Under the pieces are notes generated by a model. It was not told the origin of the DNA and searched no databases. It saw only the letters and a program-made list of their open reading frames with translations. DNA of 64,000 bases from an uncultured Gammaproteobacteria bacterium (GTDB lineage Bacteria > Patescibacteriota > Patescibacteriia > Magasanikbacterales > UBA922), in contig CAYUTO010000003.1 in the NCBI GenBank assembly GCA_964447765.1, positions 8,919 to 72,918 of the forward strand, given 5' to 3'. Below are positions 3,308 to 63,512 of the stretch, piece after piece (position 1 is the first letter of the stretch; each line of letters opens with the position of its first letter). The position numbers and the translations under genes are program-made.

Positions 3308-4885
3308 TTATACCAAACTTCTTCCCGTCATTTCTTTTGGCTGTTCAATACCAAGAATTGAGAGTACGGTGGGAGCAACATCAGCCAAGATTCCAACGGG
3401 GTGCATGAGACTCAAATCTCCTTCTGGAGGGTCTCCGGTAGGCCCCGCCCTACCCTGGAATTCATTACCAATAATCAGAAATGGCACTGGATTATTACTA
3501 TGCTCTTTGTCCTGTTCGCCTGTTTTCAAATTAATAACTTCTTCGGCATTTCCATGATCTGCAGTAATCAAAAGCACCCCACCTTTTGCTTCGACATATT
3601 CGGCGATTTTTCCTAAATTTTTATCAATGGTTTCGCATCCTTTGATAGTAGCATCTACATTCCCCGTATGCCCCACCATATCAGCATTTGCAAAGTTCGC
3701 CAAAATCACATCATATTTATCAGACTCAATCGCTTGAATTATTTTTTTGGTTACTTCTGCCGCAGACATTTCTGGTGCTTTATCATATGAAGAAACATTA
3801 GGAGAAGGGACAATCGCCCGATCCTCACCAACAAACGGCTCTTCCACCGTACCATTCAAGAAAAAAGTGATATGCGCGTATTTTTCGGTTTCTGCAACAT
3901 GAAATTGAGTAAGCCCCTGCTTGCTTATCACTTCAGCAAGACAATTGTGCACCACAATTGGTGGATATGCTACTACGACTGGAATTTCTTTTTCATATTC
4001 AGTCAGAGTGACAAACAATAAATCGGTGAGATATTCACGTTTGAATTTATCAAATCCAGGCAAGACAAAAGCTTTCGTTAATTGTCGTGCTCGATCAGGT
4101 CGAAAATTGAAAAAAATTACCGCATCACCTTTTGCAACTCGTGCCGTAGGCTTTCCTTCTTTTCCAATCACCGTTGGTATAAATTCTTCATCAAATACTT
4201 GCTTCTCATACGAAGCCTCGATTGCATCAAGCGGATGTTTGCTGTAGGTCTCTGAAATTCCTTCGACCATGGCACGATATGCACGCTCAATACGATCCCA
4301 TCGGTTGTCACGGTCCATTGCATAATAGCGACCAGACAACGACGCAATTTCTCCCACTCCAATTTTTTTCATTTTTTCTTCGAGTTTAGCAACAAAATCT
4401 TTTGCACTATTATAAATAGTATCTCTCCCGTCGAGAATCACATGTACAAACACATTCTTAATTTTATTTTTCTTTGCAAATTCAAGGAGGGAGTACAGGT
4501 GATCCTGACTTGCATGCACGTTTCCCGGACTCACCAACCCAATCAAATGCAGTGATGATTTATGAGTCGCCACGTGCTCTTTTGCCGATAAGAATGCTTT
4601 ATTTTGAAAAAAACTACCGTCCACAATAGTCTTATTAATGCGAGGAAATGTCTGATAATACACGCGTCCCGCTCCGATATTCAAATGTCCTACTTCTGAA
4701 TTTCCCATTTCTCCATAGGAAAGTCCCACTTCATTTCCAGAAGCATAGAGTGACATTGCAGGATATTCTCGTATAAAACGATCCATATTGGGAGTCTCTG
4801 CGCGTTCAATCGCATTACCCTCACTTGCAGGTGCTACTCCCCACCCATCGAGAACGGCAAGTACTACTGGTTTTGGTCGAGCCAT
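3308..4885 (-). CDS. gpmI: 2,3-bisphosphoglycerate-independent phosphoglycerate mutase (iPGM), copy 1
   Basis: 525 aa; VLDGWG near the N-terminus, GNSEVGHLNIGAGR (catalytic Ser region), ITADHGNAEE metal-binding motif. Confidence 0.9.
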   Translation of the reverse strand: MARPKPVVLAVLDGWGVAPASEGNAIERAETPNMDRFIREYPAMSLYASGNEVGLSYGEMGNSEVGHLNIGAGRVYYQTFPRINKTIVDGSFFQNKAFLSAKEHVATHKSSLHLIGLVSPGNVHASQDHLYSLLEFAKKNKIKNVFVHVILDGRDTIYNSAKDFVAKLEEKMKKIGVGEIASLSGRYYAMDRDNRWDRIERAYRAMVEGISETYSKHPLDAIEASYEKQVFDEEFIPTVIGKEGKPTARVAKGDAVIFFNFRPDRARQLTKAFVLPGFDKFKREYLTDLLFVTLTEYEKEIPVVVAYPPIVVHNCLAEVISKQGLTQFHVAETEKYAHITFFLNGTVEEPFVGEDRAIVPSPNVSSYDKAPEMSAAEVTKKIIQAIESDKYDVILANFANADMVGHTGNVDATIKGCETIDKNLGKIAEYVEAKGGVLLITADHGNAEEVINLKTGEQDKEHSNNPVPFLIIGNEFQGRAGPTGDPPEGDLSLMHPVGILADVAPTVLSILGIEQPKEMTGRSLV

Positions 4886-4889
4886 ACAT

Positions 4890-6470
4890 TTAGAATAAAG
4901 GTTTACCAGTCATTTCTTTTGGCTGCTTACCCCCGACCATTTTAATAATCGTTGGTGCCACATCAGCTAGTATCCCATCTTGTAACTTTTTTCCTTTTAA
5001 TCCGTTACGAATCACTATACAAGGCACTGGATTCAAGTTGTGCTCAGTATCTATCTCTCCTGTTTTCAAATTTTTCATTTCTTCGGCGTTTCCATGGTCT
5101 GCGACAATTAACGCTTGCCCACCTTTCGCGAGCGCTGCTGCGACCACTTCTCCTACATGAGCATCCATCACACTAACACCTTTTTTTGCTGCCTTCAGAT
5201 TTCCGGTATGTCCTATCATGTCAGCATTAGCATAATTGATACAATAAAACTGATACTTATCACTCTTCATTAATGCTAATACTTTTTTGGTGATTTCTTT
5301 TGCTGACATTTCAGGCTTAGTATCATGATGTGCAACTGTTTTTGATTCTATTTTAATCCAATCTTCACCATTGACCGGCTCCGAATAGCCCCCATTAATA
5401 AAATAGGTCACATGAGCATATTTCTCAGATTCTGCGATATATACTTGTGTAAAATCTGAAAGAGCCAAGGGAAGCGTATTATAGACTTCAGGTGAGGGAA
5501 ACACGGTGAGGATACGCTCCAGATCAGGTCCAAAATCGGTAAGCGCTACAAATCTGATATTTTTAGGAACTTTTACTCTTTTGAAAGACCCCGGATTTCG
5601 TTTATTAAAATCATCTTGAACAAATGCTTTGGTAATCTGACGAGCCCGGTCTGACCTCGCATTAAAAAATATAACCACGTCATGATCAGCAATCGAAGCT
5701 ACGGGTTTTCCTTTTTCATCCACCACGATCGAGGGAGTAATAAATTCATCAGTCTCTCCCCGATTATATGCCTGCTCGAGCGCTTCTTCGGCACTCCTCA
5801 CTTTGTGCCCCATGCCCATGACCATTGCTTCATACGCGGCTTCGGTCCGGTCCCATATTTTATTTCGATCCATACCATACAATCTTCCCATGATGGTTGC
5901 AATCTTTTCAGTATGCAGCATATGCCCCCGCAATTCATGGAGATAGTTGGCAGCAGCATGTGGTCCTGAGTCTCGACCATCAGTAAACAGATGCAAATAT
6001 ACTCGTTCAATTCCTTCTCTACGGCAGAGCTCAAGAAGTGCATAGACATGCTCGGGATACGAATGCGCACTATTACCATCAGTCAGGAGTCCCATGAGGT
6101 GCACTGCTGATTTGTATTTTTTAACATGGAATAATGCTTGCTTGAATGCTTCATTTTTGAAGAAAGTTCCATCATGAATCGAATCTGAAATACACACTAA
6201 ATCCTGCTTCACAATTCTTCCCGCTCCAATATTCAAATGCCCTGCCTCAGAATTTCCAATCTGTCCCGGAAAAAGCCCTACATGCTCGCCAAAAGTTTTC
6301 AACTTTGAAGTAGGATATTTTTTCATATACCCAAAAATATTGGGTGCAGTTTTTGACGTAATTGCATTCCCTTCATTTTTTTCAGGCGCAACACCAAAAC
6401 CATCAAGAATAATGAGTACGGTGGGAGATGGTGTTGTGATCAAAGATTTTTTTTGTTTTTTAATTGGCAT
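4890..6470 (-). CDS. gpmI: 2,3-bisphosphoglycerate-independent phosphoglycerate mutase (iPGM), divergent tandem paralog with a Lys-rich N-terminal extension
   Basis: 526 aa; ILDGFG, GNSEAGHLNIGAGR, IVADHGNAEE. Catalytic Ser and metal ligands are retained, but it is clearly diverged from the adjacent copy. Confidence 0.85.
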   Translation of the reverse strand: MPIKKQKKSLITTPSPTVLIILDGFGVAPEKNEGNAITSKTAPNIFGYMKKYPTSKLKTFGEHVGLFPGQIGNSEAGHLNIGAGRIVKQDLVCISDSIHDGTFFKNEAFKQALFHVKKYKSAVHLMGLLTDGNSAHSYPEHVYALLELCRREGIERVYLHLFTDGRDSGPHAAANYLHELRGHMLHTEKIATIMGRLYGMDRNKIWDRTEAAYEAMVMGMGHKVRSAEEALEQAYNRGETDEFITPSIVVDEKGKPVASIADHDVVIFFNARSDRARQITKAFVQDDFNKRNPGSFKRVKVPKNIRFVALTDFGPDLERILTVFPSPEVYNTLPLALSDFTQVYIAESEKYAHVTYFINGGYSEPVNGEDWIKIESKTVAHHDTKPEMSAKEITKKVLALMKSDKYQFYCINYANADMIGHTGNLKAAKKGVSVMDAHVGEVVAAALAKGGQALIVADHGNAEEMKNLKTGEIDTEHNLNPVPCIVIRNGLKGKKLQDGILADVAPTIIKMVGGKQPKEMTGKPLF

Positions 6471-8972: not shown

Positions 8973-10193
8973 TTAATCTTTATTCTTCAATCTTTTCTCC
9001 TCCTTACTAACTATTTCTACCCCCGGTAGTTTATTACCTGATAAAAATTCGAGCATGGCACCACCACCTGTTGAAACTAAATCAACAAATTCTTCCATTC
9101 CCACTTGATTCATTGCTTGAATAGTCTCTCCGCCACCGATTATTCCAAATGCTTCCCCTTTTGATCGTGACGCGACAAGGCGGGCGATTGCGAGCGTTCC
9201 CACATCATAGGGTTTCTGCTCAAAATACCCCATAGCACCGTTCCAGATAATAGATGTTGCTAATTTGATATCTTCTGAATAAACATGAATCGTTGCAGGT
9301 CCTATATCAAAAATTGCTTCATCACTCGCACAAATTTCAAATGGTTTTTTTGAAAGTGTAACTACGCGCGCAGAAGAACCATCTTTTTTTCCGACTACCA
9401 GATCAAGTGGCCATTGGATTGAATGTATAGTCTTTAGTTTTTTTGCTTCCCCGAGCATACTCTCATCTACGAGAGAGGCTCCTACCCCAAAACCCTGGGA
9501 TTTGAGATAGGTATTCACGATTCCCCCTCCGACCAGTATCACTTCAACCTTATTTTTGAGATTAGCGATTATAGGAAGCTTGGTTTCTGTTTTTGCACCG
9601 CCAATAATAAGTACACTATTCTTTTTTCCTTGCTCAAGTGTACGTGTGAGTCCTTGCACTTCTTTTTCAAGCAAGAGTCCAGCGTATGAAGGAATATAGT
9701 GAGCAACACCCGTAACAGAAGGACTTGATCGATGTACCACACCGAACCCGTCGATTACAAATATATCTGCCAGAGACGCCAGTTCTTTTGCAAAATATTC
9801 TTTACCACCCTCTTCGCCTTCGGCAAAACGGATATTATCAAAAATGGCGACGTCTCCTGGTTTTATTTTTGAAACTTCTTTCTCTATTTTTTTCAACTTT
9901 GACCAATCAGCTGATGCAATAATTTTTATCTTCTTTTGTAACATTTTACCCAATTCTTTTGCAACTGGATCTACCCTAAGATCTTTCACTACTTTCCCCC
10001 CTGGTCTACCAATATGCGTAACCAAAAGAACTCGGGCTTTTTTCTCGAGTAAAAAATTAATCGTATCAAGCGATGCAGCAATTCGAAATGCTTCTTCTAC
10101 TTTTCCTTTTATAATTGCAACATTATAATCAACGCGAACTAAAACAGACTTACCCTCGAGATCTGTTACTTCTCTAATACTTCGAAGCTGCAT
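8973..10193 (-). CDS. pgk: Phosphoglycerate kinase
   Basis: 406 aa; VLVRVDYNV start, hinge and C-terminal GGGA/GGGE motifs. Confidence 0.95.
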   Translation of the reverse strand: MQLRSIREVTDLEGKSVLVRVDYNVAIIKGKVEEAFRIAASLDTINFLLEKKARVLLVTHIGRPGGKVVKDLRVDPVAKELGKMLQKKIKIIASADWSKLKKIEKEVSKIKPGDVAIFDNIRFAEGEEGGKEYFAKELASLADIFVIDGFGVVHRSSPSVTGVAHYIPSYAGLLLEKEVQGLTRTLEQGKKNSVLIIGGAKTETKLPIIANLKNKVEVILVGGGIVNTYLKSQGFGVGASLVDESMLGEAKKLKTIHSIQWPLDLVVGKKDGSSARVVTLSKKPFEICASDEAIFDIGPATIHVYSEDIKLATSIIWNGAMGYFEQKPYDVGTLAIARLVASRSKGEAFGIIGGGETIQAMNQVGMEEFVDLVSTGGGAMLEFLSGNKLPGVEIVSKEEKRLKNKD

Positions 10194-10245: not shown

Positions 10246-11244
10246 TTACTTTCTCGTTTTTACTTTGCCTGCAATCTCGACCATCTCCACCAATCTTGTC
10301 GCATATCCCCACTCATTATCATACCACGCAACAACTTTTACGAGATTACCATCTACCACTCGAGTAAGATCAGCATCGACTGTTGCTGAATATTCATTTC
10401 CAATATAGTCACTTGAAACGAGTGGTTCAAATGAGACTGCAAGAATACCCTTCAGATATGTTTTTGCGGCTTTTATAAACGCATTATTTATCTCTTCAGG
10501 TGTGGTATCTTTTTTAAGTAACACAGTCACATCAGTCAGAGACACGGTAATGGTTGGAACACGGATCGAGAGTCCATCGAATTTTCCTTCGAGCGATGGA
10601 ATAGTACGAGTAACAGCCACTGCCGCCCCAGTTTTAGCAGGAACCATATTTTGTGCCGCTGCTCGTGCTTCACGGAGATCTTTCGAAGGTCCGTCTTGAA
10701 GTACTTGGGATGCAGTATAGGAGTGAACTGTGGTAAGCATAGCTTTTTCGACACCAAATTCTTTTTCCAACACCAACATTACCGGAGCTGCACAATTCGT
10801 CGTACATGAAGCATTATCGAGAATCGGTTCGCCTTTGTATTCTTTATCATTCACTCCTCGTACATAGGTTTTCAAATCACCTTTTCCTGGTGCTGAGATG
10901 ACTACTTTTTTTGCTCCCGCAGTAATATGTGCTTTTGCTGCCTCAGCATCAGTAAATCTACCCGTAGATTCGATTACCACATCTACCTTCAATTGTTTCC
11001 ATGGCAGTACCACTGGATCTTTCTCAGCAAATACCGGAATTTTCTTACCTTTTATGATAATATGTTTCTCGTCGTAGGAAACAGGAAAAGGAAAATCATT
11101 GTACGCTGTGTCGTGCTTCAATAAATGCGCCAATGTTTTGGTATCAGTAAGATCATTGATGCCGACAATATCTAGTTTTTTTTGAAATGCGATTTTGAAT
11201 GCATGACGTCCGATTCTGCCGAATCCGTTGATGGCAATTTTCAT
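10246..11244 (-). CDS. gap: Glyceraldehyde-3-phosphate dehydrogenase (type I)
   Basis: 332 aa; MKIAINGFGRIGR Rossmann start and the ASCTTNC active-site motif. Confidence 0.95.
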   Translation of the reverse strand: MKIAINGFGRIGRHAFKIAFQKKLDIVGINDLTDTKTLAHLLKHDTAYNDFPFPVSYDEKHIIIKGKKIPVFAEKDPVVLPWKQLKVDVVIESTGRFTDAEAAKAHITAGAKKVVISAPGKGDLKTYVRGVNDKEYKGEPILDNASCTTNCAAPVMLVLEKEFGVEKAMLTTVHSYTASQVLQDGPSKDLREARAAAQNMVPAKTGAAVAVTRTIPSLEGKFDGLSIRVPTITVSLTDVTVLLKKDTTPEEINNAFIKAAKTYLKGILAVSFEPLVSSDYIGNEYSATVDADLTRVVDGNLVKVVAWYDNEWGYATRLVEMVEIAGKVKTRK

Positions 11245-45628: not shown

Positions 45629-46432
45629 CCTATAAATGACGAAGCCGACGCGAGGGAACTCCCAAGCGTCGGCATGATTGTGGTCTATTGCGCCAACAGT
45701 GCCGAATTGCACCATCGTAGCACAAGATCGTTGAATTATCTCAGTACTCGTACCGTCCAAGACTAAGGAACCATGTGTTTTGATGCAGCTCACCTTCACA
45801 GACACCCACCTGGAAGGTTCGAACAGCTCCAGTGGTGAGTGGATCTCCTGGATGAGGACATCCTGGATGCATGAAGCCGAAGATGTTGCGGATATTTCCA
45901 CTCATGACGGTCACGTCCAGGCTATCGATCCACCGGAATTCCTGAAGCTCAGCATCCGTATAGAACTCGAGGAGCGCAGCCAGATGGTTGAACCCAGCGT
46001 GCCGCAGACCGAGCCGATTCCGAATGAACAACGCTTCTTCGAGAGTAGCTTTACGACCGAGCCTGAACAGCACCACCTTCTCCTTGATCGACTCGTAATC
46101 CCTCCCTTTGGTGTGCACGAGGAAATCATTGAGCTTGTTGACCGGCAGATTCAGATCGCAGTAGCCGCACTTGCTTGCAACAAGCCATTCCTCAGCAGTC
46201 CGCTTCGGGTAGATAGTGACTTCGAACGTGCGCTCCTCGACGTCCCTCAGGCACTGCAGCAGACTTTCCACCTCTTCTGGATTCTCGATCCACTTCTGTG
46301 CGATGGTTGCCGACAGGTCAGTCGGCAATTTCCTCACGAGCGTGGCCGAAAGCTCCTGAAGCTGAGCTCTGCTCGCGAATTTTCTTTTTCTCATTCATTC
46401 TCTCCTTGGCTACCTTTTGGTGCAATTTCTTG
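45629..46432 (-). mobile_element. GC-rich (~55%) inserted cassette bounded by inverted AATTGCACC / GGTGCAATT termini
   Basis: Abrupt GC shift. Plus strand reads CAGTGCCGAATTGCACC at 45697..45713 and GGTGCAATTT at 46419..46428. A 3' hairpin GCCGACGC..GCGTCGGC at 45644..45673 is followed on the minus strand by TTCGTCATTTATAGG. Confidence 0.45.
45741..46394 (-). CDS. Hypothetical protein (217 aa) of the GC-rich cassette; apparent fusion of the alphaCTD-protein N-module and domain X
   Basis: Strong SD AAGGAGAG upstream; the protein is plausibly folded, whereas the mirror plus-strand ORF is not; by-eye similarity to the products of 62223..62657 (N-terminus) and 62874..63413 (the remainder). Confidence 0.6.
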   Translation of the reverse strand: MRKRKFASRAQLQELSATLVRKLPTDLSATIAQKWIENPEEVESLLQCLRDVEERTFEVTIYPKRTAEEWLVASKCGYCDLNLPVNKLNDFLVHTKGRDYESIKEKVVLFRLGRKATLEEALFIRNRLGLRHAGFNHLAALLEFYTDAELQEFRWIDSLDVTVMSGNIRNIFGFMHPGCPHPGDPLTTGAVRTFQVGVCEGELHQNTWFLSLGRYEY

Positions 46433-46589
46433 ACCGCAGGCTGACCATAGAATCGCGACGGGTAAGGCACTTCCTCACCTTCTTTCTAACTTATTAGAAA
46501 ATAATTCAAAAAGAAAGCCAGGAAATCCAAATCGACAATAGGCTAAAATACCATACCGTGCCACTTTTGTCAATCATCGCTTATCCAAA

Positions 46590-62112: not shown

Positions 62113-62147
62113 TAAAAACACCTCTCCGATTCGGAGAGGTGTTTTTA
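62113..62147 (+). terminator. Intrinsic terminator of gyrA
   Basis: ACACCTCTCCGA-t-TCGGAGAGGTGTTTTT. Confidence 0.75.
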
Positions 62148-62158
62148 GTATTGAGGGA

Positions 62159-62187
62159 TTGACAAAAGCAGACTTCTATGGTAAAAA
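62159..62187 (+). promoter_or_regulatory. Sigma70-like promoter ATTGACAAAA-17-TAAAAA of GC cassette gene 1
   Basis: TTGACA at 62159..62164; SD AAGGAGG at 62209..62215. Confidence 0.4.
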
Positions 62188-62222
62188 CCTTAGCTGCCCA
62201 AACAAACAAAGGAGGTAGTAGC

Positions 62223-62657
62223 ATGGACGCTGAACAATACCAGAAACTCGCGCTCGCGGTGATGGCTGCAATCCCAATGGATCTCGACAGCCAGATCGCC
62301 GATGGGTGGATCCGAGACCCGCTCGGCCTAACCGTCGCGATGCGCCAGGCACTGGCCCCAGGAAAACAGGATCAGGAGTGGAAGCCCCATCTCTTCGAGA
62401 AACTCGATAGACGTATCGTCGACCTCCCTGGACTCACTGGCCGTGCTCGTAATTCACTTCTCGGTGAAAATAGAGACAAAGAACATCGTATCACCTACGT
62501 CGGACAGTTGGTACAAATGCGTAAAGTGAAACTCTCCTGTCTGTGGAATTTTGGAAATCACTCTCTCAAAAACGTGACCCAAGTCCTAGCTGAACTCGGA
62601 CTGGAGCTCGATATGGACGTACAAGGCTGGGTACCGCCTGAGCAGCGGAACCTGTAG
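62223..62657 (+). CDS. Standalone RNA polymerase alpha-subunit C-terminal-domain (alphaCTD)-like protein, GC-rich
   Basis: ATG with a canonical SD; residues ~65-144 align with the E. coli alphaCTD (DLPGLTGRARNSLL.. vs DLELTVRSANCLK; YVGQLVQ vs YIGDLVQ; NFGNHSL vs NLGKKSL; VLAELGLEL vs VLASRGLSL; QGWVPPE vs ENWPPA); the N-terminal ~60 aa are a separate module. Confidence 0.7.
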   Translation: MDAEQYQKLALAVMAAIPMDLDSQIADGWIRDPLGLTVAMRQALAPGKQDQEWKPHLFEKLDRRIVDLPGLTGRARNSLLGENRDKEHRITYVGQLVQMRKVKLSCLWNFGNHSLKNVTQVLAELGLELDMDVQGWVPPEQRNL

Positions 62658-62689
62658 AGTCGATTCCTCGGATCGACTCTCAAAATACG

Positions 62690-62750
62690 GACTCTCGCGC
62701 TACGGCGGTGCAATTCGGCACTGACAGCACGAGAGTCTTCTTCATTTTTA
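62690..62750 (+). repeat. Conserved cassette 3' element: hairpin GACTCTCG..CGAGAGTC containing GGTGCAATTCGGCACTG, then TTCTTCATTTTTA
   Basis: The 17-mer is identical to the rc of 45697..45713; the hairpin plus TTCTTCATTTTTA is repeated at 63422..63472. Confidence 0.6.
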
Positions 62751-62795
62751 GATAATCTAAAACCACTCGATAAGGGTGGTTTTTTATTTTAATGA

Positions 62796-62873: not shown

Positions 62874-63413
62874 ATGCACGTTCAAGTTAATCTAAGCCAG
62901 CTCACTCCACACAAAATCGAGCTGCGCGATGACCAGGTCAGGATCCACCCAAATCTCTCCGTCGAGGAGTGGTCCAAGTACGCGAACCTTTACATGACCC
63001 ACTGCAACGACGACTTCACGAACGAAAGGTTCACCAAATACCTTCGTGAACCTTCGAGTACTGAGGTCGTGAGAACCATCCGCCGCTTCCGTGCGGGGAG
63101 AGGTACTGGGTACACGGTCGAGTGGGCCCGGTCTGTGCGTGAAGCTCTCAACCTCGACCCTACTGGGTTCGAGCACATAGCAGCCTTCGCCAACCAGCAC
63201 TTCAGAATCTGGTGGAATCTCGCGCGCGAGTGGGTCTTCTCCCCGGATCTGATCTCGATGGAAATCCCCAACTCGCTCGACAAAAACAAGCCCACAATGA
63301 TCGGCATCGGGGGCAACATCGAAGCACGCCACTTTTCCGTTACACCCCTCGAGAAGTTCAATGGGTATGTGTGGTTCTGCGGTCTCGTGAAGGCCGAACC
63401 CACCACGTCCTAG
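62874..63413 (+). CDS. Hypothetical GC-rich protein (domain X), paralog of the C-terminal part of 45741..46394
   Basis: ATG at 62874 with SD GAGAGG (alternative ATG at 62853); shared blocks RIHPNLSVEEW / TIYPKRTAEEW and LNLDPTGFEHIAAF / LGLRHAGFNHLAAL. Confidence 0.55.
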   Translation: MHVQVNLSQLTPHKIELRDDQVRIHPNLSVEEWSKYANLYMTHCNDDFTNERFTKYLREPSSTEVVRTIRRFRAGRGTGYTVEWARSVREALNLDPTGFEHIAAFANQHFRIWWNLAREWVFSPDLISMEIPNSLDKNKPTMIGIGGNIEARHFSVTPLEKFNGYVWFCGLVKAEPTTS

Positions 63414-63421
63414 GGCGCAAC

Positions 63422-63472
63422 AAGACTCTCTGCACGACACTAAGTACGGCACGAGAGTCTTCTTCATTTTTA
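63422..63472 (+). repeat. Second copy of the cassette 3' element (AAGACTCTC..CGGCAC..GAGAGTCTT CTTCATTTTTA)
   Basis: Direct comparison with 62690..62750. Confidence 0.55.
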
Positions 63473-63481
63473 AACTAAAAA

Positions 63482-63512
63482 AATAATCCTCCAGTTCGGA
63501 GGATTATTTTAA
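63482..63512. terminator. Bidirectional intrinsic terminator (ruvA / cassette)
   Basis: AATAATCCTCC-agttc-GGAGGATTATTTT. Confidence 0.7.

Follow-up and report, generated by a model that had tools for sequence, protein, structure and literature searches.

The stretch of DNA which we have analysed, hereafter the window, has a length of 64 kb and a GC content of about 41%. It is dense in housekeeping genes: we find genes of glycolysis and those for RuvC, YebC, pyrophosphatase, rpoB/rpoC, FtsK, RecA, FtsH, S1, GyrA and RuvA. Cofactor-independent phosphoglycerate mutase (iPGM) is encoded by two paralogous genes in tandem on the minus strand, in positions 3308-4885 and 4890-6470. Three genes, which we call C1, C2 and C3, stand out by their composition: they have 53-56% GC and a GC3 of 0.58-0.73, against 0.30-0.39 in the native genes. 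Each of them ends in a related element, called W1, W2 and W3 respectively, as the first-pass annotation of this DNA had noticed.

C1 (62223-62657, plus strand, GC3 0.58) codes for a protein of 144 amino acids which matches Pfam family PF03118 with E = 3.8e-07. It combines the N-terminal module of the C3/X family with a helix-hairpin-helix domain similar to the C-terminal domain of the RNA polymerase alpha subunit (alpha-CTD). The module has 37 residues and is common to C1 and the C3/X family (hhalign probability 93%, E = 3.3e-7). C3 (45741-46394, minus strand) codes for a protein of 217 amino acids, a member of a small orphan family: an exhaustive HMMER search found only 27 clusters which match this family among 1.84 billion representatives. 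C2 (62874-63413, plus strand, GC3 0.73) is, according to the alignments, a paralog of the C3/X family with 179 amino acids which lacks the N-terminal module. Neither C2 nor C3 has a match in Pfam, and the AlphaFold model of C3 (pLDDT 86) has no fold match in the PDB. C2, C3 and the genes X and X'' of related genomes are paralogs with about 30-37% identity. A search with C1 returned only itself and a protein with 63% identity, a search with C3 only a copy with 99% identity. On sequence comparison, all three cassettes of the window are related by descent or by domain shuffling. Stand-alone alpha-CTD-like proteins (PF03118) of 136-145 amino acids are found in the window (62223-62657, plus strand) and in the related loci L002 (1665-2102) and L006 (10819-11229); their 37-residue N-terminal module is that of the otherwise unrelated C3/X orphan family.

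The three cassettes have a similar layout: a promoter-like site of their own, a GC3-rich coding region, the element and usually a terminator of the host type, 3-8 nt past the tail of the element. The promoter-like sites are gaTTGACAaaa, N17, TAAAAA for C1 (62159-62187, plus strand), TTGACA, N16, TAGTAT for C2 (62796-62823, plus strand) and TTGACA, N17, TG-TATTTT for C3 (46545-46573, minus strand). Long antisense ORFs are found in the GC-rich cassettes, in positions 45780-46433 (plus strand, 217 amino acids) and 62892-63467 (minus strand, 191 amino acids). They are most likely compositional artefacts of GC-rich sequence and not genes.

The element is found in positions 62689-62750 after C1 (W1, plus strand), 63422-63472 after C2 (W2, plus strand) and 45631-45725 after C3 (W3, minus strand). 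All three share the tail TTC[TG]TCATTT[TA]TA, which occurs exactly three times in the 64 kb, at 62738 and 63460 of the plus strand and 45643 of the minus strand, so that the consensus proposed in the first-pass annotation stands, together with its identity of a 17-mer between the first and third locus: GGTGCAATTCGGCACTG is found exactly in W1 (62707, plus strand) and in W3 (45713, minus strand). With up to three mismatches, 0.09 matches to this 17-mer are expected by chance. The neighbours W1 and W2 have in common an exact 24-mer, GCACGAGAGTCTTCTTCATTTTTA (62727-62750 and 63449-63472), as well as the left arm GACTCTC; the 16-mer GTCTTCTTCATTTTTA has exact copies only at 62735 and 63457. The repeat at the three loci is real and not due to chance.

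When folded, the elements are GC-rich interrupted hairpins of 30-50 nt with apical loops of 4-6 nt. They had been described as an 8-9-bp stem around a loop of 25-35 nt; this was a misreading, since folding shows that the enclosed sequence pairs with itself. W1 is a hairpin of 50 nt (62689-62738, -27.6 kcal/mol) with a basal stem of 9 bp, GGACUCUCG/CGAGAGUCU, and an apical stem CGGUGC/GCACUG closed by the 6-nt loop AAUUCG. The apical hairpin module H1 (62706-62723, plus strand) is nested in W1 and contains GGTGCAATTCGGCACTG, the 17-mer which is also present in positions 45713-45697 of the minus strand. The tail TTCTTCATTTTTA (62738-62750) lies 3' of the hairpin and is single-stranded in the fold, between two stable helices. 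The whole region of 146 nt has a fold z-score of -8.5. A perfect 11-bp hairpin, AGUCGAUUCCUCGGAUCGACU, is found upstream of W1 in positions 62656-62681 (plus strand); it overlaps the stop codon of C1 and is absent from the L002 ortholog. W2 is a hairpin of 40 nt (63422-63461, -18.4 kcal/mol) with a 5-nt loop and the same tail TTCTTCATTTTTA in positions 63460-63472. In W3 there are two separate hairpins. H1 (45725-45688) carries the 17-mer and is followed by a spacer and by H2 (45673-45644), GCCGACGC..GCGTCGGC, an 8-bp stem around only 14 nt which are themselves paired. The tail TTCGTCATTTATA (45643-45631) adjoins H2 and ends 4 nt from the stop codon of a convergent trmA-like gene. The apical hairpin with the loop AAUUCG is a conserved module which may be found either inside the basal stem or outside it, separately, as in W3. 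The conserved CGGCAC core of the first-pass annotation does not stand up as a signature: this hexamer has 19 occurrences in the window. In the element it is one arm of the inner stem, its structural position differs in W2, and orthologous copies have CGGCGC or CTGTGC instead, by compensatory change.

The distribution of the element was studied with a covariance model built from five copies. The window was searched with filters off, and 90 kb of related loci with default filters. In the window the model matches W1 with 78 bits, W2 with 57 bits and the two hairpins of W3 with 18 bits (H1) and 12 bits (H2 with the tail); the remaining matches are noise or ordinary terminators, with at most 16 bits. 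No copies are found outside known cassettes in the 64-kb window and the 90 kb of related loci. This search had been named beforehand as a check, and in all the sequence which it covers there is no copy beside any native gene. The element is not a genome-wide repeat; it is tied to the cassettes in the sequence searched. It also differs from the ordinary terminators of this genome, as had been noted: the native ones are hairpins of 20-25 nt formed by an A-tract, a stem of 8-11 bp with a loop of 3-5 nt, and a T-tract. One of them, T4 (62759-62790, plus strand, discriminant +23), is found 8 nt past the tail of W1; another, T5 (63480-63510, with no strand assigned), lies between W2 and the convergent gene ruvA and is best oriented for ruvA. 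In Rfam only a tRNA reaches the gathering threshold in the window, and permissive scans of both loci gave only matches at chance level, on ordinary terminators. We found no literature on the element. The element has no counterpart in Rfam; it is a structured 3' module which is specific to the lineage and belongs to a small family of cassettes with orphan genes.

Related genomes contain further copies. L002, together with L003 and L005, represents a close relative whose gyrA gene is 91.7% identical in nucleotide sequence. Its spacer downstream of gyrA contains X followed by C1', while the window has C1 followed by C2. L006 and L007 belong to a single MAG, with a gyrA gene 80% identical, and have X'' followed by C1'' between gyrA and ruvA. 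In L001 and L004, C3 is found at the same place as in the window. Altogether there are six distinct copies of the element in the window and in related genomes, five of which were used for covariation and for the model. In these five copies 97% of the cells are paired and six out of 14 pairs have changed on both sides, while controls with a shifted register or shifted partners give 34-57% pairing. The copies L002a and L006a are orthologs which align with no gaps: they differ in four out of nine basal pairs, always in a compensatory way, and their inner stem co-varies too, while 17 nt, TCTTCTTCATTTTTAGA, are identical in both. L002a carries GCGCAATTCGGCGC, a compensatory variant of the 17-mer GGTGCAATTCGGCACTG. 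W1 and its L002 ortholog are identical in 60 out of 63 positions. Strain L004 differs from W3 by two substitutions, and both of them keep the pairing of the sense RNA. The tail is invariant over 15-17 nt in the five copies despite the divergence of the stems; in W3 two U positions have changed, but C, C and A are kept. This evidence is moderate but consistent, from five sequences only, and it suggests that the hairpin is maintained by selection. It also supports the view that we are dealing with a structured site associated with cassettes, as had been proposed.

The element might also lack any function of its own, its similarity being what recent duplication of paralogous 3' UTRs, or gene conversion among them, has left behind. 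The cassettes are indeed paralogous, and the exact 24-mer of the neighbours W1 and W2 is what gene conversion would leave. However, the stems keep their pairing through double substitutions, the tail does not vary between orthologs with coding regions 70% identical and many differences in their stems, and neither the adjacent 3' UTR nor the coding region comes near the element in conservation. Such an origin appears already disfavoured by covariation and we consider it unlikely. The similar 3' ends of the cassettes reflect common descent plus constraint: they are related because descent or domain shuffling connects the cassettes, which also explains why C1 has H1 in common with C3, and the basal stem and tail in common with its neighbour C2.

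The two strands of the element are not equivalent. The sense strand folds at least as well as the antisense strand in nine out of 11 hairpins, owing to G.U pairs; in H1 of W3 the values are -16.7 kcal/mol for sense and -6.9 for antisense. A single-strand fold of the attC type had been suggested as a check, but where the strands differ it is the sense (top) strand which folds better. This bias, the pairing kept in L004, the anatomy typical of terminators and the placement of the element all point to a function at the RNA level, on the sense strand. On the opposite strand a small antisense ORF could begin with the tail, which as reverse complement reads TAAAAATGAAGAAG and would encode M-K-K; in all copies the opposite strand has an ATG followed by AAGAAG or ACGAAG. 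It has no Shine-Dalgarno sequence upstream, however, and the peptides would have 13, 21 or 23 amino acids, or run on to about 190, with sequences which differ past the first 3-5 residues as dictated by the stem. Long antisense ORFs, such as that in 62892-63467 of the minus strand, are a usual by-product of GC-rich sequence. We find such a coding role very improbable.

The explanation which we prefer, and to which we give about an even chance, is that the element is an atypical, probably leaky, intrinsic terminator or a 3'-end stem-loop on the sense RNA. It would be a 3'-end module of the cassette transcripts which acts in the RNA of the sense strand: a GC-rich interrupted hairpin of 30-50 nt, with its base against the U-rich tail UUCUUCAUUUUUA, may serve either as a leaky Rho-independent terminator or as a stem-loop that protects the 3' end. 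We infer that either RNA polymerase stops at the hairpin or the 3' end of the mRNA is stabilised there. In most copies a terminator of the host type, 3-8 nt downstream, would finish termination. The element would be part of the cassette genes and not of the terminator repertoire of the host. The 3' module may have been inherited, and partly homogenised, during duplication and recombination of the family, which would explain the 17-mer of C1 and C3 and the 24-mer of the neighbours C1 and C2.

Several features are consistent with a terminator. The basal stem is GC-rich, with 8-11 bp, and it is directly followed by a stretch with 9 U in 13 nt, on the coding strand and just past the stop codon. 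In all copies the hairpins have energies from -18 to -33 kcal/mol and start 8-50 nt past the stop codon. W3 is the only structure similar to a terminator ahead of the stop codon of the convergent gene, and after W2 the sole canonical terminator is oriented for ruvA. The distant members of the family, L129, L130, L131 and L132, which are enriched in GC3 in most cases, also end in a GC-rich hairpin and a T-rich run, each with an unrelated sequence; in L129 and L130 this hairpin is the only terminator-like structure in the sequence read past the gene. The C1 ortholog of L006 has lost the basal stem and the tail and has kept the canonical terminator alone, as expected of a redundant terminator.

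Other features fit a terminator less well. A discriminant of the d'Aubenton-Carafa type gives values from -42 to +2 for the elements and from +19 to +31 for the native terminators (five of the six scored). The T-score is 1.7-3.1 in the elements and 3.5-5.4 in five out of six native terminators; T5, with its orientation for ruvA on the other strand, has a value of 2.05. The hairpin is long, and the U-tract, with U in nine out of 13 positions, is interrupted by C, C and A. In four out of the six copies (W1, L002a, L002b and L006a) there is a canonical terminator within 3-8 nt, so that the element is not needed there for termination. The first-pass annotation had held that the element is something other than a plain terminator. 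The evidence on this point is mixed: the marginal discriminant and the canonical terminator which usually comes next speak for it, but the element has the anatomy of a terminator and is the sole structure of this kind after C3.

Two observations in other contigs concern the same layout. In L132 (2900-3897) a gene of the family is followed by two small orphan genes, GC-rich and Cys-rich, of 80 and 81 amino acids. Each has its own promoter-like site of the TTGACA type and a terminator, one of which consists of a hairpin and TTCTTCTTTTTTATAA, a sequence similar to the tail. L164 (2180-2850), a metagenome contig with 33% GC, has an orphan gene of 130 amino acids with a GC3 of 0.51, against 0.13-0.28 in its neighbours, and its own promoter-like site. 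The gene is followed by a 49-nt hairpin, TTCTTCATTTTTA, a terminator of the host type and GATTGACA: the layout is the same, the protein is unrelated. This match may be a chance hit of the pattern used for the search.

The conservation of the tail deserves separate consideration. It appears to be specific in sequence, with C, C and A kept, which is the opposite of what a constraint on U-richness alone would give. In the enterobacteria there are small RNAs derived from 3' UTRs, such as CpxQ and SroC, in which a single-stranded seed lies between a stem-loop and the terminator. The hairpin, the invariant tail and the downstream terminator could form a small RNA of this kind with the tail as its seed, or the tail could be a site of binding or cleavage for a protein or RNase that controls the fate of the cassette mRNA. 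The tail is the most conserved part of the element, invariant while both flanking helices vary and unpaired between them; its conservation goes beyond U-richness, the AAUUCG hairpin behaves as a module inside or outside the basal stem, and the classical terminator score is marginal. But the duplex energies of the tail with the start regions of 54 genes in the 64-kb window are no better than those of shuffled tails, no internal promoter or processing signal was identified, Rfam has no matching family and the C1 ortholog of L006 does without the tail. We therefore regard a post-transcriptional role as possible, but only tentatively. We give similarly limited credence to the more general proposal that the invariant tail UUCNUCAUUUNUA is a sequence-specific site, whether the seed of a small RNA family, a site for a protein or RNase or, together with the 5' block described below, an arm for the exchange of alleles.

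The divergence between the window and L002 has a mosaic character, which we have mapped over positions 62114-62750 of the window and 1553-2205 of L002. For gyrA dS is 0.44 and dN 0.008. For C1 dS is 1.46 and dN 0.295 (dN/dS 0.2), three times and about 37 times the values of the adjacent gyrA. Upstream of C1 there is a block of about 105 nt, from the terminator to the Shine-Dalgarno sequence, which contains the terminator, the promoter-like site of C1 and the 5' UTR: it is 100% identical in both genomes, although gyrA differs by 8%. The mosaic suggests either that old alleles have been exchanged through conserved flanks or that the coding region has a fast evolution of its own.

This pattern also bears on a role at the DNA level, in which the 3' element and the 5' block of terminator, promoter and leader would be a recombination site, or homology arms, for the swapping of alleles or the shuffling of cassettes. 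Cassette content and order vary in a single gyrA-ruvA spacer among three related genomes (C1-C2, X-C1' and X''-C1''), and the window and L002 alternate between 91.7% identity in gyrA, 100% in the 5' block, 72% in the C1 coding region and 60 out of 63 positions in the 3' element. In L006 identical terminators of 26 nt are present on both sides of the X'' cassette. On the other hand, neither the 64-kb window nor about 40 kb of syntenic sequence encodes an integrase, transposase or reverse transcriptase, and plasmid and phage collections gave no match. Core sites of the attC type are absent, and none of the cassettes lacks a promoter-like site of its own. The compensatory changes and the G.U pairs indicate an RNA structure on the sense strand, while attC sites fold on the bottom strand. 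Unequal crossing-over between terminator-promoter blocks of similar sequence explains the boundaries of the indels equally well. A DNA-level role appears to us rather improbable. The terminators of L006, AAAAACCACCTGATGAGGGTGGTTTT, are in positions 9826-9851 and 10717-10742; each is followed by gATTGACA, and they form a direct repeat which brackets X''.

A recombination site similar to attC was one of the suggestions of the first-pass annotation, and it finds no support here. We found neither the R'' core RYYYAAC nor the R' core GTTRRRY, and no AAC...GTT cores in the arms of the elements, which are GACTCTCG/CGAGAGTC, AGATCTCCGTA/TACGGAGATCT and GCCGACGC/GCGTCGGC. There is no tyrosine recombinase among the ORFs of the window or in the syntenic loci. 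Membership in the attC class fails on every feature tested. REP/BIME sequences and the palindromes of IS200/IS605 were also considered and rejected: in 64 kb plus 90 kb all copies belong to the cassettes, and no Y1 transposase was found.

At the other end of the cassettes, a conserved 5' leader precedes the genes of the C3/X family, even in distant genomes. It is found in positions 46470-46395 of the window (minus strand), 770-823 of L002, 9945-10000 of L006, 1420-1490 of L130 and 2055-2127 of L132. It has a motif CYNYGGTYRGCYTKYGGYC and then AAAAGRNAGCCAAGGAG just before the start codon, with a co-varying hairpin upstream. In the structure obtained with RNAalifold, CCUAUGGU pairs with GCCAAGG, so that the Shine-Dalgarno sequence would be sequestered in part; these pairs are invariant and thus carry no support from covariation. 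The leader is not in Rfam.

As an element, W1-W3 are most probably something fairly ordinary, a variant terminator. If they are simply the terminator of the cassettes, they would be a practical marker of lineage-specific, autonomous and fast-evolving orphan genes and of their 3' boundaries. If the tail has a function of its own, we would have an RNA motif, so far uncatalogued, in association with genes which evolve much faster than their neighbours. If the flanks do act as arms, ancient and divergent alleles of GC3-rich orphan genes would be swapped with no recombinase in a bacterium with a small genome. More unusual are the composition of the cassettes, their hyper-divergence between ultra-conserved flanks and the conserved 5' leader. 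The architecture as a whole is also of note: an own promoter-like site, a conserved leader, a GC3-rich coding region and a structured 3' end, with a variable content at one chromosomal spot. The fast-evolving genes may take part in interactions with a host or with competitors.

Several known systems resemble the cassettes or their elements. Phage morons are autonomous transcription units with a single gene. The cassettes are like them in having their own promoter-like site and terminator, an odd base composition and a location between housekeeping genes; they differ by the absence of a phage context and of phage or plasmid matches, and their flanks have a composition like that of the host and are conserved among strains. 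The attC sites of integrons are also imperfect inverted repeats, 50-60 nt long, and are found at the 3' end of cassettes which carry a single gene and vary between related genomes. However, our elements have no R''/R' cores and no intI, attI or Pc nearby, the cassettes have their own promoter-like sites and terminators, one of them stands alone on the other strand 16 kb away, and the structure favours the sense (top) strand. REP/BIME sequences and the subterminal hairpins of IS200/IS605 are short intergenic palindromes found past genes, like the element, and they are able to stabilise the upstream mRNA. The element differs from them by having only three copies in 64 kb, all in one group of genes, with stem sequences which are not conserved between copies; no RAYT/TnpA was found. 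Small RNAs such as CpxQ and SroC have the same order at the end of the mRNA, a stem-loop, a conserved unpaired stretch and a Rho-independent terminator, and in both cases the unpaired stretch is the most conserved part. Here, in contrast, there are several copies behind unrelated coding sequences, and the target screen of 54 start regions was negative. The comparison with intrinsic terminators shows differences as well: the hairpin is 2-3 times longer than in the terminators of the host and broken by internal loops, there is no upstream A-tract, C, C and A interrupt the U-tract at positions which are fixed and conserved, and the classical discriminant score is marginal. Intrinsic terminators and the element nevertheless have in common a GC-rich hairpin with a U-rich tract directly behind it, on the coding strand and just past the stop codon, a stem kept by compensatory substitutions and, sometimes, a second terminator in tandem.
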